Source: a virus. From it: DNA of 64,000 bases. This document shows, one piece after another, positions 8,468 to 58,991 of this stretch (the stretch's first letter is position 1; each line of letters opens with the position of its first letter). The notes under the pieces are model-generated. The model was given only the letters and a program-made list of their open reading frames with translations. It did no database searches and had not been told where the DNA came from. The translations under genes and the position numbers were made by a program. The stretch spans positions 1 to 64,000 of the IMG/VR virus record IMGVR_UViG_3300048599_000435. One strand, written 5' to 3'.

Positions 8468-8946
8468 TGAACAACACCGACAACGGGGCGATCACGGAGG
8501 GCGGTGTGTGGGGCGGTGTCGCCGCCGCGATGGGCGGTGCCGTCCGCGCCATTCAGTCCCCTTCCGTTACCAAGCGGCAGTTCTGGACGACGGTGGTGAC
8601 GGCGACGTTTTTCGGGGTGGTGACCGGCTTCATCGTTATGTGGCTGTACTCGGACCGGGTGCCGCCGCACCTGGCCGCGTGTGCCGGGGCGGGGGTGGGC
8701 CTGTTCGTGTCTGAACTGATGAAGCTGCTGATGAAGGTTATGCAACGGGCGAGCGACCGATTGATCGACGGCGTGGACGCGAGACTGGACGCGGCCGGTT
8801 GGAAGGCGAACTCGCAGACCAAGACGGACATCAAATCGGATGTTAAACCGAGTCCGTCTGCGGTTTTGCAGGTTCCGCCGCCGCCGGCCGGAGGTGCAAA
8901 TGGATCCGACCCCACCGGACCGACCGACCGACCCGTCCGGCAGTGA
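8467..8946 (+). CDS. holin-like membrane protein
   Basis: Two or three predicted transmembrane helices (TTVVTATFFGVVTGFIVMWLY, ACAGAGVGLFVSELMKLLM) and a charged tail. Confidence 0.5.
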   Translation: MNNTDNGAITEGGVWGGVAAAMGGAVRAIQSPSVTKRQFWTTVVTATFFGVVTGFIVMWLYSDRVPPHLAACAGAGVGLFVSELMKLLMKVMQRASDRLIDGVDARLDAAGWKANSQTKTDIKSDVKPSPSAVLQVPPPPAGGANGSDPTGPTDRPVRQ

Positions 8947-9491: not shown

Positions 9492-9806
9492 GTGGCGGAC
9501 CCAGTGGGTGACGGCGCGGCCGATATCCCCCCGAAGGACTGCTGCTGCGACGCGCCGTTCCCGAGTCCGTGTACGGACGGGTCGCAGTACGTCCAGGTGT
9601 GGCCGTGCGTCGAGGGGGTGAAGGGCGACTGCTCGTGGTTCGACCTGTCGAGCCTGACTTTCGCCCCTACACCGGCAGCGGCGGCGGCCAAGAAGCCGTG
9701 CGGCGGCGGGGCGAACGCCTTCTCGGTGATGCAGGAGGCGGTGGCCAAGGGGTTCGGCCTTGATGACTTGAAGAAACTCGCGGTCACGTTGGACAAGTTG
9801 AAGTAG
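9474..9806 (+). CDS. Cys-rich small protein
   Basis: G/C-rich third codon positions; CCCDAPFPSPC..C..C. Start is uncertain (ATG 9474 or GTG 9492). Confidence 0.5.
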   Translation: MKPADHVADPVGDGAADIPPKDCCCDAPFPSPCTDGSQYVQVWPCVEGVKGDCSWFDLSSLTFAPTPAAAAAKKPCGGGANAFSVMQEAVAKGFGLDDLKKLAVTLDKLK

Positions 9807-9903
9807 TCGATGTCTTGTCCCGCATCGCCGGGTAGCTTATTGTAGCCGACGGAAATGTCGAAAGTCGCGGCCGATTTCCGGTACTGCTTTATAATATTGC
9901 AGA

Positions 9904-9927
9904 CCGGCCGTGCGGTGGAAGTCACGG
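9904..9927 (+). promoter_or_regulatory. conserved 25-nt motif, copy 1
   Basis: CCGGCCGTGCGGTGGAAGTCACGG, 32 nt before the ATG at 9960. Confidence 0.5.
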
Positions 9928-9959
9928 GTGTCAACTCGACTCGTAGAGAGGCAGCCAGT

Positions 9960-11561: not shown

Positions 11562-11846
11562 ATGGGCTGGTTCCGTTCGTCGGAAGAGAAGGTCTTGGAC
11601 CGGATTCTCGACTCGTGCGACGACGCGCACTGCGACCACCAGGTCGGGACGACGGTCATGTTCGGCCGTCGGCCGTCGGGGACGATGCGGCAGGTGGTCC
11701 GCGAGCTTCGGGCCGGCGGCATGAGCGTGACGGAAATAATCGCCCTGGTGGTTGCGATTTTCGACCTGATACAGAAAATTGGACCCATCGTCGATGAGAT
11801 CGTTAAGCGAATCAGAGAGCGTCGGCTGGCGAGTTTCGGCGACTGA
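11562..11846 (+). CDS. hypothetical protein
   Basis: ATG at 11562 (GTG at 11556 also possible). Hydrophobic C-terminal helix IIALVVAIFDLI. Confidence 0.5.
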   Translation: MGWFRSSEEKVLDRILDSCDDAHCDHQVGTTVMFGRRPSGTMRQVVRELRAGGMSVTEIIALVVAIFDLIQKIGPIVDEIVKRIRERRLASFGD

Positions 11847-11855
11847 GGTGTGTTA

Positions 11856-11880
11856 CCGGCCGTGCGGGGTAAGTCACGGA
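11856..11880 (+). promoter_or_regulatory. conserved 25-nt motif, copy 2
   Basis: CCGGCCGTGCGGGGTAAGTCACGGA, 23 nt before the ATG at 11904. Confidence 0.5.
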
Positions 11881-11903
11881 CAGTGCCCGATTGCGAGGTG
11901 CCG

Positions 11904-12197
11904 ATGCGGATCCTCGACCTGTGGGCGACGCAGCCGGTGTCGAAGAGGCGGATGCGTCAGTTCGACCTGGGTGTCGAGGACGACGGGTTGCCGCCGGTGC
12001 TGGTGGCCCTGTGTCCGGACGGCGAGTACGAGGTCCGGGACGGGCACCACCGGCTCGCGTACTACCGCCTTCAGGGCAAGGAAAAACTGGACGACGGCGA
12101 GTACTTCGTGATCCACGTTGACGAGTGTCGTCGCCGGCTTGGTCGGATCGACGAGGTGATAGAGTGGAACGGCCTGTTTGAGGCGGTGAAATCCTGA
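11904..12197 (+). CDS. ParB-like nuclease domain protein
   Basis: YEVRDGHHRLAYY core motif of ParB/Srx-type N-terminal domains. Confidence 0.6.
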   Translation: MRILDLWATQPVSKRRMRQFDLGVEDDGLPPVLVALCPDGEYEVRDGHHRLAYYRLQGKEKLDDGEYFVIHVDECRRRLGRIDEVIEWNGLFEAVKS

Positions 12198-12218
12198 CCG
12201 TGCGGGATAAGACACGGA
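12196..12218 (+). promoter_or_regulatory. conserved motif, copy 3
   Basis: GACCGTGCGGGATAAGACACGGA, directly after the stop at 12197. Confidence 0.45.
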
Positions 12219-12283
12219 TAGAGTGGCCCTGCCGGCTGGCGAACCGGAGATGATGGATCGGTCTGAAAACCAAGGAGGTTGGG

Positions 12284-12640
12284 ATGTTGAAGCAGACGTT
12301 TCTGGCGGTGGCCGCCGTGGCGATTTCGGCGGGTGTGGCGGACGCCCAGTTCACCTACCCGGTGTCGGGCGGACAGCAGGTGTGTACGGCCGCCGGGTGT
12401 CGGCCCGTTCAGACGGCCGTGACGGCGGCGCACAACGCGGTCGTGAACACGGCCGAGGCGGTTCGTGGGGTGTGGACGGACCCGACGGTGAGTCCGTGGC
12501 ACGTCCAGTCGCCGGCGGTGATTACCCAGCGGATGGCGGCCCCGGTCGTCGGCGGCCACGTCACGTTCACGCCGGGTCAGCCGGTTCGCAACGTGTTGCG
12601 GGTGGTGAAGGGTGTCGTGGCCGGCGTCGTGGCGAAGTAG
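12284..12640 (+). CDS. secreted hypothetical protein
   Basis: Signal peptide MLKQTFLAVAAVAISAGVADA; AGGAGG-like RBS. Confidence 0.6.
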   Translation: MLKQTFLAVAAVAISAGVADAQFTYPVSGGQQVCTAAGCRPVQTAVTAAHNAVVNTAEAVRGVWTDPTVSPWHVQSPAVITQRMAAPVVGGHVTFTPGQPVRNVLRVVKGVVAGVVAK

Positions 12641-12715
12641 TGACGGAAATCCCGAGCCGGCGGGTCGAGACCGGCGTGAGTCGCCAGTGGCTGCGGTCGT
12701 CACCGGAGGGTGGGC

Positions 12716-12958
12716 ATGGGCAGTCGCAAGCGTGGCGGTGAGCGTCGGCCGTCGGAGGGGTCGGCGGTGGTGTCGAGGGAGTTCGGCCCGTGCCTGGTGC
12801 TGGTTCATTTGCGGACGGGCGTGGTCCGGGTGGTCGAGACGGACGAGGTCGGGGCGGCGGACCGCAACGAGGCGACCGGGTGGGCGATCCGCCAGTTGGT
12901 CGCCGCCGGCCTGCCGGTGAACAGCCCGCTCACCCTGCGGGACGCCATGTGGGGCTGA
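12716..12958 (+). CDS. hypothetical protein
   Basis: ATG at 12716, 6 nt after GGAGG. Confidence 0.45.
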   Translation: MGSRKRGGERRPSEGSAVVSREFGPCLVLVHLRTGVVRVVETDEVGAADRNEATGWAIRQLVAAGLPVNSPLTLRDAMWG

Positions 12959-12959
12959 C

Positions 12960-12984
12960 CCGGCCGTGCGGGTGAATGCGCGGA
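12960..12984 (+). promoter_or_regulatory. conserved motif, copy 4
   Basis: CCGGCCGTGCGGGTGAATGCGCGGA, 16 nt before the ATG at 13001. The stem keeps pairing through a U-G wobble. Confidence 0.45.
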
Positions 12985-13000
12985 CACCGACTACAAGATC

Positions 13001-14805: not shown

Positions 14806-15261
14806 ATGTTGAAGCTGACCTTTTCTGGTGACGGTGAGGTGTTGGGATCGACCAACGAGTGGCGTGACCGGCCAAAAAAGGTGATGGCGACTGTTCAGCC
14901 GCCGAGGAAGGCGCGGGACCGGTCGGAGAAGTACTGTGCGACGTGCTTACGTATCCGAGTGTACGGGGTTTCGACCTGTCTGCCGTGTCTGACTCGGATG
15001 GGCACATCGGTGGCGGCGACGGTGCTGGTGTACCCGCACGCGGTCGGTTACCGGGTGCAGGTGTCGAACCTGAAGAAGATCGTGGCGGAGATTCGCAAGT
15101 ACGGGGTGGAGCCGCCGGCGAGGTGGTGCGAGGTGGCGGACGGGCGGACGGGTAGGCCGAAGAAGAAAACGACGCCGATGAGCCGTGATGCGCGGGCTGT
15201 GACCGGGGCGACGGCGGTGTTCGTCCGGGACGGGCGACACCGGCTGGCACCGGACGGATGA
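14806..15261 (+). CDS. hypothetical protein with CxxC..CxxC motif
   Basis: Trimmed to the ATG at 14806, after GAGGAAGG. Contains CATCLRIRVYGVSTCLPC. Confidence 0.5.
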   Translation: MLKLTFSGDGEVLGSTNEWRDRPKKVMATVQPPRKARDRSEKYCATCLRIRVYGVSTCLPCLTRMGTSVAATVLVYPHAVGYRVQVSNLKKIVAEIRKYGVEPPARWCEVADGRTGRPKKKTTPMSRDARAVTGATAVFVRDGRHRLAPDG

Positions 15262-15264
15262 CTC

Positions 15265-15289
15265 CCGGCCGTGCGGGACAAGACGCGGA
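15265..15289 (+). promoter_or_regulatory. conserved motif, copy 5
   Basis: CCGGCCGTGCGGGACAAGACGCGGA, 18 nt before the ATG at 15308. Confidence 0.45.
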
Positions 15290-15307
15290 AGAATCAGGAG
15301 ACGCGCC

Positions 15308-15664: not shown

Positions 15665-15891
15665 TGCCGACCCTGAAGGTGTACTGTCGGCGGTTCAAGA
15701 CGGGTGTGGCCGACGTGGTGTTCGATGGGGACGCGGAGTCGGAGGCGGGCAAGAACTGGGTCGAGAAGGTAGCGGCGTTCAGGGCGCGAACGGTACGCAG
15801 TATGGGGCCGGCGGCGTATCAGCGGTGGTGGTGTGAGGTGGACGGCGTGCGTCAGGAAACTTCAGAGTCAGACAAGGGAGGTGAGGGGTGA
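15664..15891 (+). CDS. hypothetical protein
   Basis: Its ATG overlaps the upstream TGA. Confidence 0.45.
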   Translation: MPTLKVYCRRFKTGVADVVFDGDAESEAGKNWVEKVAAFRARTVRSMGPAAYQRWWCEVDGVRQETSESDKGGEG

Positions 15892-16706
15892 GCGACGAGA
15901 AAGACGACCTGTGGGACAAGATCGCGGCGTGGCTGGCGGAGCCGTTCGAGCCAAGACAAGTCAAGTGGTTGCCGAAGGTGGTACGGCAGGACAGTGCCCT
16001 CGGTATGCCGTACGTCGATAGCCGGACGGTGATGGACCGGTTGGACGCCGTGCTGGGGATGGAGAACTGGCAGGACAGCTACGACTTCCTGCCGGATCGG
16101 GCGGTGATGTGCCGGCTGGCGGTCCGACTGCCGGGGACGGCCGAGTGGATCACCAAGAGCGACGTGGGCACGGAGAGCGAGCAGCCGGACCAGGGGGACC
16201 GGTCGAAGTCGGCCGTGAGTGACGCCCTGAAGCGGGCGGCCGTTCACTGGGGTGTGGCTCGGTATCTCTACCGCGTTCCCAGCGTGTGGGCCAGGTACGA
16301 TGCGAAGAAGAAGCAGTTCTCCGAGATCCCCCAGTTGCCGGCGTGGGCGTTGCCGGGGTTCGGGGCGAGGAAGGAGGAGTCGAAGGCGGCGTCCAAACCG
16401 GGTGCCACCGGTCAAGCTGGCAACCCAGCGCCACACCCTGTCAGCCCGGCCGAAGGGCAGAAGGCGTACGACCAGTTCGTGCGGCAGATCAAGGCGGTCG
16501 CCGGCGACGCCGAGTGGCAGTCGGTGGCCGGGGCGATCAAGGCGGTGGTTCAGGCGGGCGGCGGCGGCATGACGCCGGCCCACGTCCAGGGCCTGCGGGA
16601 CGCCCTGGCGGCGCGGTGGGACGACATGCACCCGAAGGCGGACGACGAGGTCGGCGAGGACGACTCGGCGGGCGACGGGGACGACGTTTCGGACGTGCCG
16701 TACTAA
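15888..16706 (+). CDS. Rad52/Rad22-type single-strand annealing protein
   Basis: YVDSRTVMDRLDAVLGMENWQ and KSAVSDALKRAAVHWGVARYLY. The GTG start overlaps the upstream stop. Confidence 0.7.
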   Translation: MSDEKDDLWDKIAAWLAEPFEPRQVKWLPKVVRQDSALGMPYVDSRTVMDRLDAVLGMENWQDSYDFLPDRAVMCRLAVRLPGTAEWITKSDVGTESEQPDQGDRSKSAVSDALKRAAVHWGVARYLYRVPSVWARYDAKKKQFSEIPQLPAWALPGFGARKEESKAASKPGATGQAGNPAPHPVSPAEGQKAYDQFVRQIKAVAGDAEWQSVAGAIKAVVQAGGGGMTPAHVQGLRDALAARWDDMHPKADDEVGEDDSAGDGDDVSDVPY

Positions 16707-23965: not shown

Positions 23966-24286
23966 ATGGCCAAAGCGGTGCTGCCCAAGTGTGTGAACGC
24001 CGAGTGCGGTCGGCCGGTGACACTGGACGGCCTCCGGGGACTGTGCGTCCACTGCTACGTCGATCCGGAGATTCGCGACCGGACGGCCGTCCGAGGTCTG
24101 CTGGCGGAGGGGAAGCCGAAGAAGGCGAAGGGGATGAAGAAGCCGAAGCGGAAGGAGAAGCCGCTGCCGCCGCCGACGGACGTGCCGCCGGGGCCGGACC
24201 GGGTGGAGGTGCTGGAGGCCAGGGTGAAGGGCGGGTATGCTTTATGGCACCCGCTGGACGCGACCGGCGACAGCCGGCAGTGGTAG
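23966..24286 (+). CDS. hypothetical zinc-ribbon/basic protein
   Basis: CVNAECG..CVHC followed by a Lys-rich linker. Confidence 0.5.
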   Translation: MAKAVLPKCVNAECGRPVTLDGLRGLCVHCYVDPEIRDRTAVRGLLAEGKPKKAKGMKKPKRKEKPLPPPTDVPPGPDRVEVLEARVKGGYALWHPLDATGDSRQW

Positions 24287-24423
24287 CCGGCCGTGCGGCC
24301 AAAGTCACGGACGCGGGATGTAAGGACCACGAGGCGGTTTTGATTAACCAGGCCGTGCTGGTAAAGTCACGGACGCAATTTGCGATGCATATGTTTTCCA
24401 GGCCGTGCTGGTCAAGACACGGA
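24287..24423 (+). promoter_or_regulatory. three tandem copies of the conserved 25-nt motif
   Basis: Copies at 24287-24311, 24348-24373 and 24398-24423 (GGCCGTGCKGG..AAGWCACGGA). Confidence 0.5.
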
Positions 24424-24439
24424 CCCAGGAGATGATGCC

Positions 24440-24598
24440 ATGCCGGCCGTAGACCGCGAGTACGACTTGAAGAAGCTGATGCGTCGGTGGGCAACGACCG
24501 GCAACGGGCACACCTGCTGTCTGGCTTGTCGGGGGCGGCGGTGGAAGCGGCACATGCCGCGATGCGACCGGTACAAAACCGAGAGAAAGGGGAGGTGA
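24440..24598 (+). CDS. small Cys-rich protein
   Basis: ATG lies 8 nt after AGGAG; contains CCLAC..C. Confidence 0.4.
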   Translation: MPAVDREYDLKKLMRRWATTGNGHTCCLACRGRRWKRHMPRCDRYKTERKGR

Positions 24599-28505: not shown

Positions 28506-28532
28506 GTGCCAGTCTTTTCCTGCTGGCCCAGG
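28506..28532 (-). repeat. solitary CRISPR-repeat unit (SRU-a)
   Basis: 27 nt identical to the hairpin-containing 3' part of the array repeat, in the same orientation as the array. Confidence 0.6.
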
Positions 28533-28581
28533 AATCACCGGCCGGTCTCGCCTACCGATTGGCGGGATCGGCTTTCTGTCG

Positions 28582-33371: not shown

Positions 33372-33848
33372 GTGCCAGTCTTTTCCTGCTGGCCCAGGTT
33401 GTTTGATACGCACGTGAGCCTCGGCACCCCGCCGAACTCGTCCGTGTGCCAGTCTTTTCCTGCTGGCCCAGGTTGTTTGACATGTCGGCGGGTGTCGGGA
33501 CGGTGGATATCGGGCCGGGGTGCCAGTCTTTTCCTGCTGGCCCAGGTTGTTTGATTGCGGCGCGTGAGCGTGGCCCAGTTGCCACCCAGGGCGTGCCAGT
33601 CTTTACCTGCTGGCCCAGGTTATTTGACGGTGTCACTTGGCACCGCCATTTTCGAGCCAGCGGTTGTGCCAGTCTTTTCCTGCCGGCCCAGGTTGTTTGA
33701 CGACTAGTGTCAGTAGCCCAGTGGCGTGGGCCAAGTCGCGTGCCAGTCTTTTCCTGCTGGCCCAGGCTGTTTGATGCTCAGGTTGTTTGACGTCGGTCTT
33801 GCGGATTCTGGGGGTGCCAGTATTTTCCTGCTGGCCCAGGTTGTTTGA
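33372..33848 (-). CRISPR. CRISPR array, 7 repeats (35-36 nt) with 38-39-nt spacers
   Basis: Repeats start at 33372, 33446, 33520, 33593, 33666, 33740 and 33814. Minus-strand repeat is TCAAACAACCTGGGCCAGCAGGAAAAGACTGGCAC, with a 3' hairpin GCCAG-N10-CTGGC. Confidence 0.85.
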
Positions 33849-33873
33849 TAGCAAAGGTCATAAACTATTACTG

Positions 33874-35703
33874 CTACACACTTTGCGGTATCGTCTGCGA
33901 GAGGGTCGCCTTCCGCCTCGGCTTGAGCAACGTCTTCTTCGGCTTCTTTTTCGTAACCGCTTGCCCAGCCTGGTCGTCAGGCGGGCGAGTGGGGTCGTCG
34001 GTATCGCCGTCATCGGGCCGCTCGGCGAGCATGGTCAGCAGGTTCAGGGCGGCGTTCTCGTCCTGATCCCACTCCGCGCCGCACGCCGTGCAGGTGTGGG
34101 TCAGGCGGCTGCGGTCGAACGTCTGGTCGGACCAGCAGGCGTGGCACCGGGAGGTGGTGCCGTGCGGGGCGAACTCGGCGACCGGGCAGCGGCCGTTCAT
34201 CCGCAGGCATTGTAGGAGCAGGCCGACGGCCGCCGCCCGCATGTACTCCTTCCTCGCCCGCGTCGGGTTGTCCTCTTCCGGCCGGTCGTCCCTGGCCATC
34301 CGGGCGACGGCCAGTTTCTCCACCGCCAGCCGGCCGTACCGACCGCCCATCTCGGCGGCGAACTTGCGGTAGACGTCCAGCCGGCGACGGATCGCCCGCC
34401 GGCCGCACGACACGAACGCCATCTCCAGTCGCACGTCCGCGTCCCGCCACTCCAGTAACTCGTTGTGGCGTGGCGCGATGTCGGCATCTTGTCCCGTGCC
34501 GTCGGGCGTCGTCAGTTCGTCCCACCGGGTCAACAGCGTGTGCAGCCGGTTGTACCCGCGCCACTGGCGGACAGTGGTGGTTGCCTCAAGGAACGCCTCC
34601 GGCAGCGACTCTCGCGAAGCGTCGATCCAGTCGGCCAGCCGGTCCCGCTCGGCGTTGAACAGCCGGTCCCGCTCGGCCTGGGCCTCCTCGCGGCGGGTCC
34701 ACAGGGCGAGCAGGTCGGGCGGCAGTGTCAGTTCGCCCCGGCCGCCCCGGTCGTCGGCCCAGCAGGCGACCCGGAGCGAGCCGTCCGGCCGCAGCCGCCA
34801 GCCGACGTCGATCCCGCACTTGCCGTCCTTGTCCTCGACGGGTCGGTCCGGCACGGAGACGACGAACTGGACTGACCAGTCGTCGTAGGCGGTCGGCGGC
34901 TCGTCCCGCCGCTTGCGGGTGTGCCACCCCTGCCGGCGAACCAGGTGTACCCACTTGACGGTGCCGCCTTCGGGCAGCGGCCGGTGCGCCTTCACCCGCA
35001 GCGTCGTCCAGACCGGACGCCCCCGGTCGGACGCCAGCCGCAGGTGAACCAGTTTGACGTTCGGGTGGCCGGGGATCGACTCGATCCGGACGCGGGTGTC
35101 CTCGCCGGCGTACACGTCGGCGGCCGACAGGCCGTTCTGGATCTGGGCGGACAGTCGGCCGTCGCGGTCCCAGCGGCGGAAGCGGACGGGGCCGAACGGT
35201 GTGGATGATGCCGCCCGTTCGGCCGCTTCGGCGAGGGCCAGCTTGGTCCCCCACCAGACGGCCGAGGCGTTGTACGCGGCCTTCTGCCGGGCGAAGTGGG
35301 CGGCCGTCTCGGCCTTCTGAGCGGCCTTCCATGCCGGCGTGGCGTGCAGGGCCTTCATGGCGGCCGACCGGGCCGCGTAGGCCAGTTTCAGTTTTGCCCT
35401 GGCGTCGAGGACGGCCATGCGGAGGTCTTCCGACGCCACCTCGGCCCGCTCGCGGCCCTTGTACGCCTGCACCTCGGCGACGGCCGCGTCCCGTTCGGCT
35501 TCCAGTCGGGACACGACCGCGTCGGCCTCGGCCAGTTCCGGCGACATGGCCCGGCGGATCGCGTCCAGGTTGGCCCGCTTCAGGTTCTCCAGTTCGACCA
35601 GCCCGTTGTAGTACCGGTGGGCCGAGTACATCCAGTCAGCCAGCCGCCGCTCTTGGTCGGCCGACATCCGATAGACGTGAAATGCGAACACTTTGGTAGG
35701 CAC
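33874..35703 (-). CDS. TnpB/Cas12-like RuvC nuclease (compact type V effector candidate, 609 aa)
   Basis: RuvC-I KCGIDVGWR, RuvC-II RLAVEKL, zinc finger CHAC..CTAC, RuvC-III DQDENAALNLL. TnpB-like N-terminus FAFHVYRMSADQERRL..YYNGLVE. The array starts 25 nt after its stop. Confidence 0.8.
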   Translation of the reverse strand: MPTKVFAFHVYRMSADQERRLADWMYSAHRYYNGLVELENLKRANLDAIRRAMSPELAEADAVVSRLEAERDAAVAEVQAYKGRERAEVASEDLRMAVLDARAKLKLAYAARSAAMKALHATPAWKAAQKAETAAHFARQKAAYNASAVWWGTKLALAEAAERAASSTPFGPVRFRRWDRDGRLSAQIQNGLSAADVYAGEDTRVRIESIPGHPNVKLVHLRLASDRGRPVWTTLRVKAHRPLPEGGTVKWVHLVRRQGWHTRKRRDEPPTAYDDWSVQFVVSVPDRPVEDKDGKCGIDVGWRLRPDGSLRVACWADDRGGRGELTLPPDLLALWTRREEAQAERDRLFNAERDRLADWIDASRESLPEAFLEATTTVRQWRGYNRLHTLLTRWDELTTPDGTGQDADIAPRHNELLEWRDADVRLEMAFVSCGRRAIRRRLDVYRKFAAEMGGRYGRLAVEKLAVARMARDDRPEEDNPTRARKEYMRAAAVGLLLQCLRMNGRCPVAEFAPHGTTSRCHACWSDQTFDRSRLTHTCTACGAEWDQDENAALNLLTMLAERPDDGDTDDPTRPPDDQAGQAVTKKKPKKTLLKPRRKATLSQTIPQSV

Positions 35704-35737
35704 TGGTTGATCCTTTGACTGGTGGCTGTGGATGCAG

Positions 35738-35762
35738 TCCGTGTCTTGCCCCGCACGGCCGG
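35738..35762 (-). promoter_or_regulatory. conserved 25-nt motif, copy in the cas12-like leader
   Basis: CCGGCCGTGCGGGGCAAGACACGGA, 34 nt before the GTG at 35703. Confidence 0.5.
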
Positions 35763-35789
35763 GTGTGTCAGCGGACCGGCACCAGATGA

Positions 35790-35887
35790 GTGCCAGTCTT
35801 TACCTGCTGGCCCAGGCTGTTCTGCCCTGGACGTGTGTCCGACCCACGGCACTTGCCGGTCTTCACCTGCCGGCCCAGGTGTCTTTA
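35790..35887 (-). CRISPR. promoter-proximal mini-array (2 degenerate repeats, one 28-nt spacer)
   Basis: Repeats at 35853-35887 and 35790-35824. The upstream one keeps the hairpin through a compensatory A-T to G-C change. Confidence 0.55.
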
Positions 35888-35892
35888 GCTGT

Positions 35893-35920
35893 ATTATACA
35901 CGTCTCCAATCGGGATGCAA
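35893..35920 (-). promoter_or_regulatory. sigma70-like promoter P1 (drives the mini-array, the cas12-like gene and the array)
   Basis: TTGCAT-CCCGATTGGAGACGTG-TATAAT with a 16-nt spacer. Confidence 0.6.
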
Positions 35921-35968
35921 GTCAAATGTCGTCACATTCACCCGGCACGTCGCCCCTGGACGAGCGTG

Positions 35969-36487
35969 TCATTGGTCGTCCCCGGCCGTGGTCATCGCGA
36001 TGGCGATCAGCCGCCGCTGGGCCGCCGGTCGCCTCATGACGGCGGCGAGCAATTGTTCCAGGGTTGCGGCGGCGAGTTTGGCGTCGGCGGTCTCGGTGGT
36101 CATGGCCTCGTCGAGGATCTGCTTGGCTCGCTGCTTGCTGACGCCCAGGGTGGCGGCCAGGTCGGCCCCGCACCCGCCGGCGGCGGCCACGGCGGCGACG
36201 GCCGCCTTCCGCCTGTCGGGGTCGAACCACCCCCGGCGGCGGTGACGGCTACAGGCCGGGTTCTCGCACAGCCGGCGGGTCTTATTCCTGTCGAACGCCT
36301 TCAGTTTGGCGGGCGTGACGAGGCCGACCTGGTCGGCGTGGCAGGTGTCACACCGGACGGCCCACAGGTATGAGCCGACGTCGCTCCTCTCGGCCGTCGG
36401 CCCGATCAGGGTGTACCCGCCGATCGACTTGCCCCGGTAGGTTTCCGTCGTGTACGGGCCGGTCAGGTGCCCCTTGGTGCGTCCCAT
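35969..36487 (-). CDS. putative DNA-binding protein
   Basis: CENPACSRH zinc-like motif plus an HTH-like ATLGVSKQRAKQILDEA. Confidence 0.5.
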   Translation of the reverse strand: MGRTKGHLTGPYTTETYRGKSIGGYTLIGPTAERSDVGSYLWAVRCDTCHADQVGLVTPAKLKAFDRNKTRRLCENPACSRHRRRGWFDPDRRKAAVAAVAAAGGCGADLAATLGVSKQRAKQILDEAMTTETADAKLAAATLEQLLAAVMRRPAAQRRLIAIAMTTAGDDQ

Positions 36488-38256: not shown

Positions 38257-38381
38257 CACTTGTCCCCCACGAGTTTGTTGACCGCATCGGTCAGGAATGG
38301 GCTGTGCTGTTCACAGCACGCCTGTTGCTCGTGCCGGTATTGACCTGCTGGCCCAGGCCGTGGAGTACGATCCTGATTCAT
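38256..38381 (-). CDS. 41-aa micro-ORF containing a CRISPR-repeat-like sequence
   Basis: Starts 2 nt after the upstream stop and ends overlapping the next start. Its RPGPAGQY stretch is encoded by the repeat-like unit. Confidence 0.3.
   Translation of the reverse strand: MNQDRTPRPGPAGQYRHEQQACCEQHSPFLTDAVNKLVGDK
38331..38364 (-). repeat. degenerate solitary CRISPR-repeat unit (SRU-b)
   Basis: Plus-strand GTGCCgGTatTgaCCTGCTGGCCCAGGccGTgGA compared with the array repeat. Confidence 0.5.
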
Positions 38382-41200: not shown

Positions 41201-41367
41201 CACTTGGCACCCCCGATGAGCAGGATGTAGGCGGCGATGGCGAGCAGGCCGACAAGGTTAAGGACGGCGTACCAGTCTTGTCCTGCTGGCCCAGGTTGTT
41301 CGATGACTGTGGCACTCACGGCCGGGTGCGGCCGGTCCTCGAAGTCGGGCAGGTCTTCGTCTTGCAT
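41200..41367 (-). CDS. 55-aa membrane micro-protein containing a CRISPR-repeat-like sequence
   Basis: ATG lies 8 nt after GGAGG. C-terminal transmembrane helix VLNLVGLLAIAAYILLIGG. Its EQPGPAGQDWY stretch is encoded by the repeat-like unit. Confidence 0.35.
   Translation of the reverse strand: MQDEDLPDFEDRPHPAVSATVIEQPGPAGQDWYAVLNLVGLLAIAAYILLIGGAK
41269..41303 (-). repeat. solitary CRISPR-repeat unit (SRU-c)
   Basis: Plus-strand GTaCCAGTCTTgTCCTGCTGGCCCAGGTTGTTcGA: 32 of 35 positions match the array repeat. Confidence 0.55.
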
Positions 41368-42992: not shown

Positions 42993-43199
42993 TCAGCGGT
43001 ACAGGAACTCGCCCGGTTCCATCCTGTAAATCCGGACGATGGGTCCGACGCCGCTGCCGTGCGGCCTGGCGAGGTGCCGGTCGCAGGCGGCGGTCGCCCT
43101 CTTCTCGGTTTTGTAGTGGCCGATCACGCGGGCCGTCGGACCAACCTGGACCACGGTCCATCGCGTTTCGTCGGTCGGGTTACTGGTTAACTTCTTCAT
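42993..43199 (-). CDS. hypothetical protein
   Basis: 68 aa with G/C-rich third codon positions. Confidence 0.55.
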   Translation of the reverse strand: MKKLTSNPTDETRWTVVQVGPTARVIGHYKTEKRATAACDRHLARPHGSGVGPIVRIYRMEPGEFLYR

Positions 43200-43217
43200 T
43201 GGTCGTTCCTCGGTTGG

Positions 43218-43769
43218 TTATTCTTTGGGCAGGTCGGCGTCGTCGATTTCGTAGAAGTAGTGGGCGGCGTCCTTAATCTTGCAGATCAGTTCTCGCCACT
43301 GTTTGGTGTCGCTCAGGGCGTGGTGGCAGTCGATGACCGACTTGGCCATCTGAGCGGCCAGTTCCGGGTACTCCAGGGCGTCTTCGATATCCGGGCATTC
43401 GACGTACACCTCGGACTCGGAAGACCAGTCGCCGATGATGTACTCGCCGCCGCCGATGTCCCGGTAGACGGCCTGCCCGTTGTTGTCTTGGCCTTCCCAC
43501 GGTTCGGTTCGCAGGACGCGGCCGTCGTCGGCGTCCACATAGGCGGTGGCCCCGCCGCTGAACGCCTCGCGGCTCCACTCGCTGACGCCGTACTGCTTGC
43601 TCCAGCCGGTGCCTGGTCCGCTGGTGGCGAACGCCGGGCCGACGATGCCGGAGGCAACGGTGTATGAGTTCTCGCAGAACTTGTGGATGGCTTTCTCGAC
43701 GCTGCTGGCCCGGACGACATCTGACAGGTCGATGACGACGGTGGCTTTCTGCTTGGCGGTCGTGCTCAT
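43218..43769 (-). CDS. hypothetical protein
   Basis: 183 aa; first gene after promoter P2. Confidence 0.6.
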   Translation of the reverse strand: MSTTAKQKATVVIDLSDVVRASSVEKAIHKFCENSYTVASGIVGPAFATSGPGTGWSKQYGVSEWSREAFSGGATAYVDADDGRVLRTEPWEGQDNNGQAVYRDIGGGEYIIGDWSSESEVYVECPDIEDALEYPELAAQMAKSVIDCHHALSDTKQWRELICKIKDAAHYFYEIDDADLPKE

Positions 43770-44495: not shown

Positions 44496-44836
44496 CACTG
44501 GCTCTCCTTGAGGGATTCGAGGGCGGCGTCGTACAGGGCTTGGTACGTCGGGTACTTGCCGGCCCAACTCTGGTAGTCGGGGTGCGGCTGGTTGTGCGGG
44601 GCGACTTCGGCCAATTGGTCGCCCCGGAAGCAGGCAGAGCATTTCATCATCCGGCCGAAGATGTAATCCGAGTGCCAGCCGGTGACGCCGTCCCAGTTGG
44701 TCGTACTGACGAACGGTTTGATGTCGTCCTCGGTCTTGTCGGCGTTGAAGTGGAGGAAGCCGAGGCCGACGGGCCGGCTGGCCTGGTACGCGAGCCACTG
44801 CATCCGCAGGGCGATCCGTTCGGGGGTGTGGGTCAT
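44495..44836 (-). CDS. hypothetical protein
   Basis: 113-aa ORF of balanced composition. Confidence 0.6.
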   Translation of the reverse strand: MTHTPERIALRMQWLAYQASRPVGLGFLHFNADKTEDDIKPFVSTTNWDGVTGWHSDYIFGRMMKCSACFRGDQLAEVAPHNQPHPDYQSWAGKYPTYQALYDAALESLKESQ

Positions 44837-44899
44837 TGGTCGTCCCTCGGATGGTTGGCGTCTTTTGTCGGTCTTGCCCGGCCGACTCCGGGTGTGGGT

Positions 44900-45016
44900 T
44901 CAGAACCCGTACTTGGCGAAGGCCCGGTCAACCCAGGCGTCGGCGTGCGGGCGGCGGTTGCGGTACTGGCCGCTCTTGCAGAAGTAGGCGGCGACGAGGT
45001 CTTGCAGGGAAGGCAT
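44900..45016 (-). CDS. 38-aa micro-ORF
   Basis: ATG lies 8 nt after GGAG; G/C-rich third codon positions. Confidence 0.3.
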   Translation of the reverse strand: MPSLQDLVAAYFCKSGQYRNRRPHADAWVDRAFAKYGF

Positions 45017-58804: not shown

Positions 58805-58991
58805 CACGCCTCCAGTCCTCGGAACACGCTCTCGTGCCAGTGTTAGCCTGCCGGCCTAGGCTTTCCGACCGCCACTTCCGTCTCGCCATGTGCCACCGCA
58901 TAGCGCTGGCGAACCACTCCCACCGGCCGCCAAACTCGCCCAGGCGATCCGCAAGAACGCAACCACCGAAAGTGACGGCCGGACGGCTCAT
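58794..58991 (-). pseudogene. truncated paralog of the C-terminal domain of 61725..62405
   Basis: LADRLGEFGGRWEWFASAMRWHM aligns with LADRLDEVGEKWKWVSYAFRWCM. The reading frame then runs into SRU-d. Confidence 0.3.
58834..58866 (-). repeat. degenerate solitary CRISPR-repeat unit (SRU-d)
   Basis: Plus-strand GTGCCAGTgTTagCCTGCcGGCCtAGGcTTTcc. The hairpin is kept with one G-U pair. Confidence 0.45.

Follow-up and report, generated by a model that had tools for sequence, protein, structure and literature searches.

The window (the whole 64,000-nucleotide stretch of phage DNA analyzed) carries a gene whose product matched the Cas12m structure PDB 23vw_A over residues 18 to 558 (E value, 4.6e-39) and, at greater distance, Cas12m2 (8hio/8hhl; 7e-12) and GoCas12m (8pm4; 4.5e-10), and it also exceeded the cutoff of Pfam family PF07282. 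Judged by these matches and by its TnpB-like RuvC and zinc-ribbon TNB domains within ∼600 aa, the gene encodes a homologue of Cas12m (type V-M). Alignment gives its RuvC triad as D299/E462/D546-D548, i.e., the canonical D-E-D, in contrast to the H-D-D of Cas12m2. DNA binding without cleavage is common to Cas12m according to Bigelyte et al. (PMC11013384), which makes a regulatory use plausible, and the D-E-D clades were left open by Omura et al. The CRISPR array following the gene (Table 1), with the 36-nt repeat consensus ATCAAACAACCTGGGCCAGCAGGAAAAGACTGGCAC, has the V-M architecture found at 24 other loci, with repeats of ∼36 nt of which the 3′ two-thirds form a stem and pseudoknot and the guide lies 3′ of the repeat. 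Spacer 1 of the array holds a truncated repeat. The lack of adaptation genes (cas1, cas2, and cas4) and of a tracrRNA is a further trait of type V-M. The window contains ∼90 open reading frames (ORFs), and neighboring ORFs gave no Pfam or PHROG matches except for a DNA polymerase processivity factor. Nothing was found in Rfam and tRNA scans, and no anti-repeat was seen in repeat searches.

Table 1. Features of the cas12m locus and scaffold-like copies in the window (CM, covariance model)
Feature	Position	Strand	Remarks
Promoter-like site P1	35893-35920	-	TTGCAT (35920-35915), 16 nt, TGTATAAT (35900-35893)
R1, degenerate repeat at predicted transcript start	35853-35888	-	26/36 to array consensus; 9/9 pairs
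S1, short spacer, 27 nt, GTGCCGTGGGTCGGACACACGTCCAGG	35826-35852	-	Between R1 and R2
R2, near-consensus repeat	35790-35825	-	30/36 to consensus; 9/9 pairs
S2, short spacer, 17 nt, TCATCTGGTGCCGGTCC	35773-35789	-	Between R2 and R3
R3, cryptic third repeat, GCTGACACACCCGGCCGTGCGGGGCAAGACACGGAC, class B	35737-35772	-	19/36 to consensus; 9/9 pairs; AAGAC loop
Final 33 nt of leader	35704-35736	-	Ribosome-binding site AAAGGA 7-12 nt before GTG
cas12m, 609 aa, GTG start	33874-35703	-	GTG supported by conserved N terminus (M/V)PTKV(Y/F)
CRISPR array of seven 36-nt repeats and six 37- to 38-nt spacers	33372-33849	-	Starts 24 nt past cas12m stop
Array spacer 2	33702-33739	-	nt 1-24 antisense to L001 class B repeats
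Scaffold-like pseudoknot in cas12m coding sequence, class B	34480-34515	-	9/9 pairs; sole control match in census
Solitary consensus-type repeat, end of leftward gene arm	28506-28541	-	Syntenic L001 copy at 15723
Solitary repeat in small ORF	38331-38366	-	One A-C mismatch in stem II
Solitary repeat in 63-aa ORF	41269-41304	-	Repeat and structure scans
Class B pseudoknot	44865-44900	-	Ends 28 nt before ATG (113-aa ORF)
Solitary repeat	58834-58869	-	Ends 29 nt before ATG (75-aa ORF)
Class B pseudoknot	9806-9841	-	Sole copy antisense to local genes
Class B pseudoknot	9894-9929	+	Ends 30 nt before ATG (210-aa ORF)
Class B pseudoknot	11846-11881	+	Ends 22 nt before ATG (97-aa ORF); CM 18.6 bits, new match
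Class B pseudoknot	12184-12219	+	Ends 33 or 64 nt before next start
Class B pseudoknot	12642-12677	+	Ends 38 nt before ATG (80-aa ORF); CM 23 bits, E 7e-4, new match
Class B pseudoknot	12950-12985	+	Ends 15 nt before ATG (117-aa ORF); CM new match
Class B pseudoknot	15255-15290	+	Ends 17 nt before ATG (118-aa ORF); AGGAGA 6-11 nt after element
Scaffold-like pseudoknot in coding region	16389-16424	+	CM 18.3 bits; 9/9 pairs
Second three-repeat mini-array, class B	24277-24424	+	Ends 15 nt before ATG 24440 (52-aa Cys-rich ORF)

All elements of the cas12m leader are read from the minus strand. The leader of the cas12m operon takes the form of a degenerate mini-array with three repeats, R1-27 nt-R2-17 nt-R3. 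R1 abuts P1 and has the 3′ end CAA, compared to CAC in the array repeat, and 33 nt separate the end of R3 from the GTG at 35703. An earlier, sequence-only reading had described the promoter abutting a degenerate repeat, a spacer of 28 nt, a second repeat, and a conserved 25-nt motif. The sequence bears out the promoter and both repeats, and the spacer measures 27 nt in the 36-nt repeat frames used here and 28 nt in the 35-nt frame of that reading. The motif is present too, not as a separate element but as part of R3.

P1 has an extended −10 element (TATAAT at 35898-35893, with TG at 35900-35899), and transcription is predicted to start 6 to 8 nt past it, at 35887-35885, i.e., at nt 2 to 4 of R1. 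The site was absent from the listing of a generic promoter scan because TTGCAT agrees with TTGACA at only three of six positions. It falls within a family of at least five similar same-strand sites ahead of genes, with the form TTGC(A/G)T-CCCG..GG-16 nt-TAnnnT and starts at about 54730, 53029, 51687, 48563, and 35923; the ortholog in the closest relative, locus L001, is at position 12376. No terminator-like site was found between P1 and the cas12m GTG. A riboswitch-like alternative fold found no support, as the folding energy of the whole leader was no better than that of shuffled sequences (z values of −0.39 and −1.5).

The repeat folds into stem I (nt 10 to 13 with 20 to 23) and stem II (nt 15 to 19 with 30 to 34), nine pairs in total. 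Across 21 repeat copies from this phage and L001, 95% of the paired cells are complementary, compared with 23 to 48% in slid controls, and six of the nine pairs change on both sides. Stem II matches the Cas12m2 pseudoknot C(−22..−17):G(−8..−3), and the unconserved nt 1 to 7 match the disordered 5′ end in the Cas12m2 structure (PMC10442227). The stem and pseudoknot that are kept are the part of the crRNA scaffold that, in the solved Cas12m2 structure, is ordered and in contact with the protein, and R1 and R3 have drifted in sequence while retaining all nine pairs of that fold. Stem II of R1 reads GCCGG/CCGGC in place of GCCAG/CTGGC (A18 to G and T31 to C), the double compensatory change that the sequence-only reading had pointed out; its G-U intermediate is present in array repeat 3 and in the solitary copy at 58834. 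R3, with stem I CCCG/CGGG and stem II CCGTG/CACGG, is altered on both sides at five of the nine pairs and changed at 17 of 36 positions overall. The changes in R1 and R3 uphold the proposal in that reading of selection on RNA structure. R1 scored 40.7 bits with a covariance model whose training set included it. The 26-nt repeat core matched the window 13 times and none of 100 shuffles, and the structure scan gave no match in 30 shuffles. The leader units are thus genuine derivatives of the repeat on which selection for RNA structure acts.

The L001 Cas12m is 57% identical and its repeat has a different sequence. Its leader reads R1-14 nt-R2-44 nt-ATG, both repeats match its own array repeat type, and stem I of its R1 carries a compensatory change from U-A to C-G. 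The leader repeats and conserved hairpin on whose presence in homologous loci the sequence-only reading depended are therefore found in this relative. In L001, no promoter was recognizable ahead of R1, and a 68-aa ORF was called that overlaps this repeat, so the promoter-R1 link is not a conserved one. Between the two phages, the short spacers agree at 11 of 14 positions with one gap, which is not significant (P = 0.07 to 0.25).

The leader arrangement recurs in related and distant V-M loci. When the 300 nt upstream of cas12m were passed through a structure filter, leader scaffolds were present in 7 of 25 V-M loci, with 17 matches in 7,081 nt of leader versus 1 in a control set of 90,229 nt. 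In six of these seven loci, 10 to 44 nt separate the end of the last scaffold from the start codon; the exception is L033, where an identity scan places it 99 nt away and an ordinary full array lies upstream of cas12m. Abnormally short leader spacers also recur (14, 14, 15, 17, 25, and 27 nt), those equivalent to S1 in L001, L024, and L034 being only 14 to 15 nt long. As 18 of the 25 loci are without a leader scaffold, it is not essential to the V-M system.

Could the leader be functionless, left over from a second array or an earlier recombination and now decaying? Both R1 and R3 have diverged strongly and the spacers are shortened, a truncated repeat also occurs in array spacer 1, and some V-M loci, such as L033, have ordinary full arrays upstream of cas12m. 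Neutral decay, however, would break pairs, and R3 has kept all nine through its 17 changes; R1 and its L001 counterpart each have a compensatory double change, and the arrangement is held across phages so distant in Cas12m. We regard a remnant as highly improbable.

The short spacers yielded no DNA target. Searching the window with S1, exactly and with three mismatches, returned only S1 itself, and ungapped scans of the whole window, run at 16, 20, and 28 nt for each of the 13 guides, produced only matches at the level of chance, as did fuzzy and cross-searches of the short spacers of both phages. The own-phage search covered 64 kb of the 109.7-kb contig. When S1 and the post-R2 guide were aligned locally, with gaps, to both strands of the promoter and leader, P was never below 0.07; the best S1 match in the 173 nt upstream of R1 was 9 nt at the PAM-distal end (P = 0.07), and no PAM-proximal run of ≥10 nt was found. 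A blastn search of S1 against 50,697 phage genomes produced only noise inside the cas12m coding region. Exact scans of genome and viral collections matched a Burkholderia coding sequence and a run of ∼21 nt in one viral contig, both judged to be chance. The flank of the last array repeat shares 12 identical nt with cas12m codons at 35510-35499, which is about the chance level for 13 guides.

These searches bear on autorepression of the CreR/crlRNA type, in which a guide from R1-S1 (or R2-S2) would lead Cas12m to partly matching DNA at or just past P1 and block RNA polymerase. Degenerate mini-arrays upstream of cas genes act in this way in types I-B, I-E, and V-A (10.1101/2023.03.10.532045, 10.1101/2023.03.03.530964), Cas12m is a natural DNA roadblock (PMC11013384), and spacers of 14 to 17 nt recur in V-M leaders. 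The leader shares with the CreR/crlRNA mini-arrays of types I-B, I-E, I-F, and V-A a degenerate repeat, a short spacer, and a repeat right upstream of the effector, a repeat that keeps the handle fold, and an expected feedback relieved by competing crRNAs. Degenerate repeats do flank a spacer-like segment beside the effector gene here, and the effector-binding structure is predicted to be kept. Partial complementarity of spacer and promoter beside a PAM (∼10 or more PAM-proximal nt) was not found; as the searches located no DNA that the short spacers would target, the feature that defines CreR is missing. The S1 guide does match the R2-R3 spacer region at 14 of 20 positions in register, behind CTG, which is also the flank at the spacer 2 target in L001, and the R3 guide and the P1 −35 region share 7 nt (TGCATCC). 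The 14/20 match, however, is broken at nt 7 to 13, where an R-loop must propagate, and is more simply seen as a duplication of repeat-plus-flank units. The PAM-distal position of the 9-nt promoter match, the chance-level results throughout the window, and the lack of significant likeness between the short spacers of the two phages also tell against such repression, which we consider unlikely. The autoregulatory guide of the sequence-only reading thus lacks the evidence that it most needs, S1 having no PAM-proximal complementarity beyond chance to the promoter or the 64 kb. CreR/crlRNA, moreover, are separate small genes, whereas the repeats here lie inside the 5′ untranslated region (UTR) of the effector itself, number three, and have a fold that recurs at ∼17 further window sites; the system is type V-M and phage encoded, neither of which was found for crRNA-like elements in the literature searched.

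A hardwired guide acting in trans, with R1-S1 from the start of the operon transcript directing Cas12m to silence a host gene or rival mobile element outside the available sequence, is quite unlikely. At 27 nt, S1 exceeds the 17-bp heteroduplex used by Cas12m2 (PMC10442227), array spacer 2 matches degenerate repeats of L001 at 22 of 24 positions, and the search for a target covered 64 kb of the 109.7-kb contig. Against this, the 50,697 phage genomes contained no match to S1; the single exact matches in public collections look like chance, and the equivalent spacers of 14 to 15 nt in L001, L024, and L034 are too short for specificity to a foreign target.

Beyond R1 to R3, the window contains ∼17 further scaffold-like pseudoknots. 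Most class B copies among them come from a scan requiring the pairs, so that class B pair counts are circular, and the independent evidence for this class is the excess over shuffles and the new covariance-model matches. The 3′ end of class B copies is GAC, as in most V-M repeats, and differs from the CAC of the phage's own array repeat. The second mini-array comprises units at 24277-24312, 24339-24374 (a new covariance-model match; 27.5 bits, E value of 4.5e-5), and 24389-24424, separated by spacers of 26 and 14 nt. On both gene arms, solitary copies run in the direction of local transcription (19 of 20 in all), and a ribosome-binding site and start codon follow 15 to 38 nt downstream at 10 of 16 loci, an association that partly reflects short intergenic regions. 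Repeat matches of ≥22/36 are on the sense strand in the window and L001, and the structure scan of the L001 minus strand gave no matches; the other loci have scattered opposite-strand matches of 22/36-37, at chance level, and one copy in L005 (29/36).

Leader and dispersed repeats might instead act as a sponge or decoy that soaks up Cas12m, either the phage's own, as a buffer, or the Cas12m of a competing V-M system whose repeats are of the class B type, like a Racr RNA anti-CRISPR. Solitary repeat units in phages do act as RNA anti-CRISPRs (PMC10651486), the GAC ending of class B resembles most V-M repeats rather than the phage's own, and spacers of 14 to 17 nt cannot give a full guide. An exact-pattern search of 185,579 species genomes and IMG/VR, however, found no array of either repeat type, and hence none of class B, the matches being isolated chance ones in coding regions. 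A sponge would also leave unexplained the fixed short spacing before start codons and the conserved leader arrangement at cas12m, and we think it very unlikely.

Occurrence of the same fold ∼17 more times, in many cases before start codons, argues for a role at the RNA level over that of a DNA-targeting guide. The reading that we prefer, with a confidence slightly short of even, is that the leader repeats are Cas12m-binding sites on its own mRNA that exert RNA-level feedback and do not carry immune spacers. Cas12m cuts its own pre-crRNA upstream of the scaffold (PMC11013384, PMC10442227). If P1 starts the transcript at R1, free Cas12m could bind R1, R2, and R3 and cut upstream of each scaffold as it does with pre-crRNA. 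The resulting cas12m mRNA would then carry Cas12m bound to R3 at its 5′ end, 33 nt ahead of the start codon, and this particle would lower translation or alter mRNA stability and thereby produce feedback; crRNAs from the array, competing for Cas12m, would relieve it. As the array starts 24 nt past the cas12m stop, the same processing would trim the 3′ end of the mRNA. The R1 unit would be released as a crRNA-like RNA of ∼60 nt, whose guide may have a target outside the available 64 kb. The 33 nt between R3 and the start codon put the start at the outer limit of the stretch that a bound protein would cover, which counts against the proposal.

Other known systems share parts of this arrangement. 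In tracr-L (Cas9 autorepression in type II-A) and scaRNA, a repeat-derived RNA likewise makes the effector a gene regulator via a short match, but these RNAs use an anti-repeat and an 11- to 15-nt promoter match, whereas the leader has same-sense repeat copies and no such match; nothing in the leader accordingly resembles the tracr- or scout-like RNA of the sequence-only reading. The Racr and Cracr RNAs of phages are also solitary repeat-like units, scattered in the phage genome and transcribed, but they mimic host repeats to disable host immunity, while the copies here resemble the array repeat of the phage's own system, are many, and lie ahead of start codons. Type V-M systems (MmCas12m2, GoCas12m, and the Cas12m of phage MV-1 [10.64898/2026.09.14.751636]) have in common with this one a compact Cas12m, an array directly downstream, no tracrRNA, and a 36-nt repeat forming a stem and pseudoknot; the literature examined on these systems describes neither leader repeats nor dispersed solitary copies.

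The start-associated sequences of cluster K mycobacteriophages are 13-bp motifs upstream of many starts, with no known link to CRISPR. These too are short conserved elements repeated before many phage start codons, but there the conserved feature is a sequence motif, whereas here it is an RNA fold common to the CRISPR repeat of the phage.

In types I, II, and V-A, regulatory RNAs derived from repeats are known beside cas genes and guide the effector to a promoter. The present case differs in its noncutting V-M subtype, its carriage by a phage, and its location inside the effector's 5′ UTR without a detectable DNA target. Occurrence of the arrangement in 7 of 25 V-M loci suggests a second route of feedback, in which the effector recognizes its own mRNA via the crRNA scaffold. 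Cas12m is under development as a compact platform for DNA binding; scaffolds that occur naturally with the same fold but very different sequences map what Cas12m tolerates, and a self-limiting natural leader could be reused to cap expression.

More tentatively, and with considerable doubt, we suggest that the phage may use Cas12m and the crRNA scaffold fold for post-transcriptional control of its own genes. The ∼20 pseudoknots would mark mRNAs on both arms 15 to 38 nt before their starts, Cas12m binding or cutting would set translation or stability, and the array spacers of rival phages would attack the degenerate repeats. If the dispersed copies were also bound, a virus would be using a CRISPR effector for RNA-level control of its own genes, which would account for the spacer that a rival phage maintains against such copies. 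Array spacer 2 of the present phage is directed in this way at L001-type copies, matching L001 positions 8917-8894 (blastn-short E value of 0.002), and on this sequence match the array clearly appears to take part in phage-phage conflict.

On sequence, the 609-aa product of the gene behind the leader is Cas12m, the effector of CRISPR subtype V-M. Its closest solved structure is 23vw_A, "CRISPR-associated DNA-binding protein Cas12m" (E 4.6e-39, nearly full length), further structural relatives are Cas12m2 (E 7e-12) and GoCas12m (E 4.5e-10), and a Cas12f1-like TNB domain is matched in Pfam. RuvC residues D299, E462, and D546-D548 form the canonical D-E-D triad, whereas Cas12m2 has H-D-D. The N-terminus, (M/V)PTKV(Y/F), is conserved in relatives and backs the GTG start. 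Cas12m effectors bind DNA without cutting it and silence transcription; the 5' part of their crRNA is a 36-nt scaffold derived from the repeat and folded into a stem and a pseudoknot (the first seven 5' nt being disordered in the structure) and forms a heteroduplex of ∼17 bp, and Cas12m cuts its own pre-crRNA upstream of the scaffold (PMC11013384, PMC10442227).

Leader features, cas12m, and array all lie on the minus strand, in the order P1-R1-27 nt-R2-17 nt-R3-33 nt-GTG, where P1 is a promoter-like site and R1 to R3 are repeats, R2 being near-consensus and R1 and R3 strongly diverged. Searching the window for the 26-nt repeat core gave 13 matches, whereas 100 shuffles gave none. The promoter-like site next to a degenerate repeat, described in the sequence-only reading, is present at the coordinates proposed. 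P1 is absent from the list of a generic promoter scan because TTGCAT agrees with TTGACA at only three positions. It has relatives on the same strand ahead of genes (beginning at ∼54730, 53029, 51687, and 48563; the P1 motif at ∼35923) that share TTGC(A/G)T (TTGAAT in one), a conserved CCCG..GG element, 16-nt spacing, and a TAnnnT hexamer, and an orthologue at 12376 (+) in L001, the locus of the closest relative. P1 is likely to be a promoter, judged by its sequence. The predicted start, 6 to 8 nt past the −10, would fall on nt 2 to 4 of R1, and the transcript would begin roughly where a processed crRNA begins. A terminator scan found no terminator-like sites between P1 and the GTG. In L001 the P1-type site follows the array and is not ahead of the mini-array. 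The CCCG-N4-GG(G) element of the family has an operator-like look. A separate motif, GGGACGACCAATGAC, recurs at gene junctions (35968-35982, 43196-43219, and 44836-44860, minus strand); at one of these sites the motif overlaps the stop codon of the ORF that immediately precedes P1, and the ATG it contains would open an ORF of 16 codons only.

Features of the cas12m leader and related elements (window coordinates unless L001 is named)
Feature	Position	Strand	Details
P1	TTGCAT 35920-35915; TATAAT 35898-35893	-	16-nt spacing; TG just before TATAAT; read from sequence
R1	35888-35853	-	36 nt; begins about 6 nt past the −10; 26/36 match to array repeat ATCAAACAACCTGGGCCAGCAGGAAAAGACTGGCAC
S1 (spacer)	35852-35826	-	27 nt; between R1 and R2
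R2	35825-35790	-	30/36 match to array repeat
R3	35772-35737	-	GCTGACACACCCGGCCGTGCGGGGCAAGACACGGAC; relaxed leader scan; 19/36 match to consensus
cas12m ORF	35703 (GTG) to 33874	-	609 aa; Cas12m homologue (type V-M)
CRISPR array	33849-33372	-	seven repeats; spacers 37-38 nt; starts 24 nt past cas12m stop
Solitary consensus-type repeats	58834, 41269, 38331, 28506	-	repeat search
Second triple mini-array	24277-24312, 24339-24374, 24389-24424	+	gaps of 26 and 14 nt; scans and covariance model
L001 leader	R1 9871-9906; R2 9921-9956		degenerate R1, 14-nt spacer, near-consensus R2; ends 44 nt before ATG

An ungapped alignment of 21 repeat copies from the window phage and its relative defines stem I (nt 10-13 with 20-23) and stem II (nt 15-19 with 30-34), the 5' strand of stem II sitting in the loop of stem I. 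Pairing holds in 95% of the alignment's cells, compared with 23 to 48% for slid partners, and both sides change at six of the nine pairs. Stem II falls at the position of the Cas12m2 pseudoknot C(-22..-17):G(-8..-3). The compensatory change proposed earlier for R1, GCCAG/CTGGC to GCCGG/CCGGC, is real, and its single-step G-U intermediate is found in array repeat 3 and in the solitary copy at 58834. A 25-nt conserved motif, also reported there, does exist, as part of R3 and not as a separate element; R3 keeps all nine pairs and the AAGAC loop with other stems (CCCG/CGGG in stem I and CCGTG/CACGG in stem II). Compensatory changes speak against a functionless remnant, which we regard as hardly likely. 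A scaffold-like pseudoknot with 9/9 pairs also lies within the cas12m coding sequence (34480-34515, minus strand), where it encodes LTTPDGTGQDAD, within a part of the protein whose alignment to other Cas12m sequences is poor.

Only five cas12m homologues were found in a collection of 5.8 billion proteins. The closest, P0002 (57% identity), is on JGI contig Ga0364483_10225, which holds L001. Homologous loci lacking the repeats or the hairpin had been set beforehand as grounds for rejecting a leader mini-array, and the observation withstands this check: L001 has two leader repeats, and R1 there shows a double change, U-A to C-G, in stem I. The array repeat of L001 (GTCACACAACCTCGTGGCGTAGGTCAACACGCCAAC) is identical to that of the window at only 20/36 positions, and both of its leader copies descend from its own repeat type. 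Among 25 V-M loci having an array, filtered on each locus's own helices and at least 60% loop identity, seven have leader scaffolds (the window, L001, L015, L024, L032, L033, and L034), with 17 matches in 7,081 nt upstream versus 1 in 90,229 nt of control. From the end of the last scaffold to the start codon the distance is 10 nt in L015, 29 in L034, 33 in the window, 38 in L032, 40 in L024, and 44 in L001; in L033 it is 99 nt (identity scan). Abnormally short leader spacers recur: 14 nt in L001 and L024, 15 and 25 nt in L034, and 17 and 27 nt in the window. The other 18 loci have no leader scaffold; some carry a divergent HTH gene in its place.

The window (65% GC) consists of two convergent gene arms, plus to ∼28.4 kb and minus from ∼28.5 kb. 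Scans found no tRNAs or Rfam families and very few PHROG or Pfam matches, and none of 50,697 phage genomes matches it at the nucleotide level. A structure scan for any 36-mer with the nine pairs plus A26, A27, and A29 gave 15 matches on the minus and 3 on the plus strand, versus none in 30 shuffles. A covariance model trained on them found 24339 (27.5 bits), 12642, 11846, 16389, and 12950 as new copies, and 9894 and 24277 came from a relaxed scan. Copies from a pair-requiring scan cannot prove the pairs; independent evidence comes from their surplus over shuffled sequence and from the copies newly found with the covariance model. Most of these copies fall into a sequence class of their own, class B (consensus CCCGGCCGTGCGGGACAAGACACGGAC). 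In total there are 20 solitary copies apart from the seven array repeats; stem II takes at least five sequence forms among them, each self-complementary. With one exception, the 20 point the way the local genes are transcribed, which is plus between 1 and 28.4 kb and minus between 28.5 and 64 kb; at 10 of 16 loci a ribosome-binding site and start codon follow 15 to 38 nt past the element. A gap of 15 nt separates the second triple mini-array from the ATG of a basic, Cys-rich 52-aa ORF without a family match (24440-24598, plus strand; MPAVDREYDLKKLMRRWATTGNGHTCCLACRGRRWKRHMPRCDRYKTERKGR). L001 is similar: its solitary copy at 8886 precedes an ATG by 36 nt, its two-repeat unit (13172/13246) precedes a DnaN-like gene by 34 nt, and further copies are at 15243 and 15723. 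The last (15723-15758, +) is syntenic with 28506-28541 (−) of the window; both are consensus-type, sit right where the gene arm ends, and are followed by the reverse complement of the convergent gene's stop region (TTAGCCGCC...), and a hairpin precedes the L001 copy. Small ORFs contain the repeats at 38331-38366 and 41269-41304 (−), and both repeats are translated in one and the same frame (PGPAGQ); the ORF at 41269, of 63 aa, has a hydrophobic C-terminal segment.

It had been suggested that the leader encodes a short-spacer regulatory guide, a suggestion that the searches did not bear out. In CreR/crlRNA mini-arrays, which autorepress cas genes, the spacer matches the cas promoter over ∼10 or more PAM-proximal nt (10.1101/2023.03.10.532045, 10.1101/2023.03.03.530964). 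No such match was found here: the best local alignment of S1 with the promoter region is 9 nt at the PAM-distal end (p = 0.07). A DNA roadblock of this type at the cas12m promoter is unlikely. S1 has no second copy at ≤3 mismatches in the 64-kb window (part of a 109.7-kb contig), and all guides scanned there at 16 to 28 nt gave chance-level matches only. It resembles the R2-R3 spacer region, behind CTG, at 14/20 positions in register; mismatches at positions 7 to 13 would stop R-loop growth, and the likeness looks like duplication of a repeat plus its flank. Targets of the short spacers beyond chance were found neither in cultured phage genomes nor in public collections. A guide acting in trans and a decoy are each less probable still than the roadblock.

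Sense orientation on both arms, conservation of the protein-contacted part of the scaffold, and a site just upstream of ribosome-binding sites point to a role at the RNA level. We tentatively favor, at a little below even chances, a cas12m leader that is a set of candidate Cas12m-binding sites on its own mRNA, with cutting and feedback. Free Cas12m would bind the scaffolds and cut upstream of each, as on pre-crRNA; the particle left behind on R3, at a distance of 33 nt from the GTG, would reduce translation or change how stable the mRNA is, and array crRNAs, competing for Cas12m, would relieve the feedback. With 24 nt between the cas12m stop codon and the array, processing there would also be expected to trim the mRNA 3' end.

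V-M systems were already known on plasmids and prophages (PMC11656645), and a September 2026 preprint describes Cas12m in a myxophage, called the first in a phage (10.64898/2026.09.14.751636). Types I, II, and V-A are known to have repeat-like regulators beside cas genes; we found no published report of one for V-M. In contrast to those regulators, the present leader belongs to V-M, is phage borne, lies within a 5' UTR, lacks a promoter match, and has scaffold-like relatives throughout the genome, as part of one family.

The window phage also seems, from sequence matches, to carry a spacer against a rival's leader mini-array and solitary repeats. Starting with its first nucleotide, array spacer 2 (33702-33739, −; GCGACTTGGCCCACGCCACTGGGC...) runs antisense to degenerate class B repeats of L001: 22/24 at the solitary copy 8886 (8894-8917), 21/24 at leader R1 (9880-9903), and 20/24 at the copy at 15243 (15252-15275), with PAM-side flanks CTG, GTG, and CTG, respectively. 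Array "spacer" 1 (33776-33813, −) is composite, ∼23 nt being followed by a truncated 5' part of the repeat (TCAAACAACCTGAGC), and contains GCAAGACCGAC, also present in the class B copy at 44865. L024 (3771-4002, 5920-6472) has two repeat types with compensatory differences in both stems, arranged as four variant repeats upstream of cas12m (first spacer 14 nt), the gene, one variant repeat, and the main array; its 14-nt spacer and the sequence beginning 6 nt past the postgene variant repeat have CGCCTGGCA in common.
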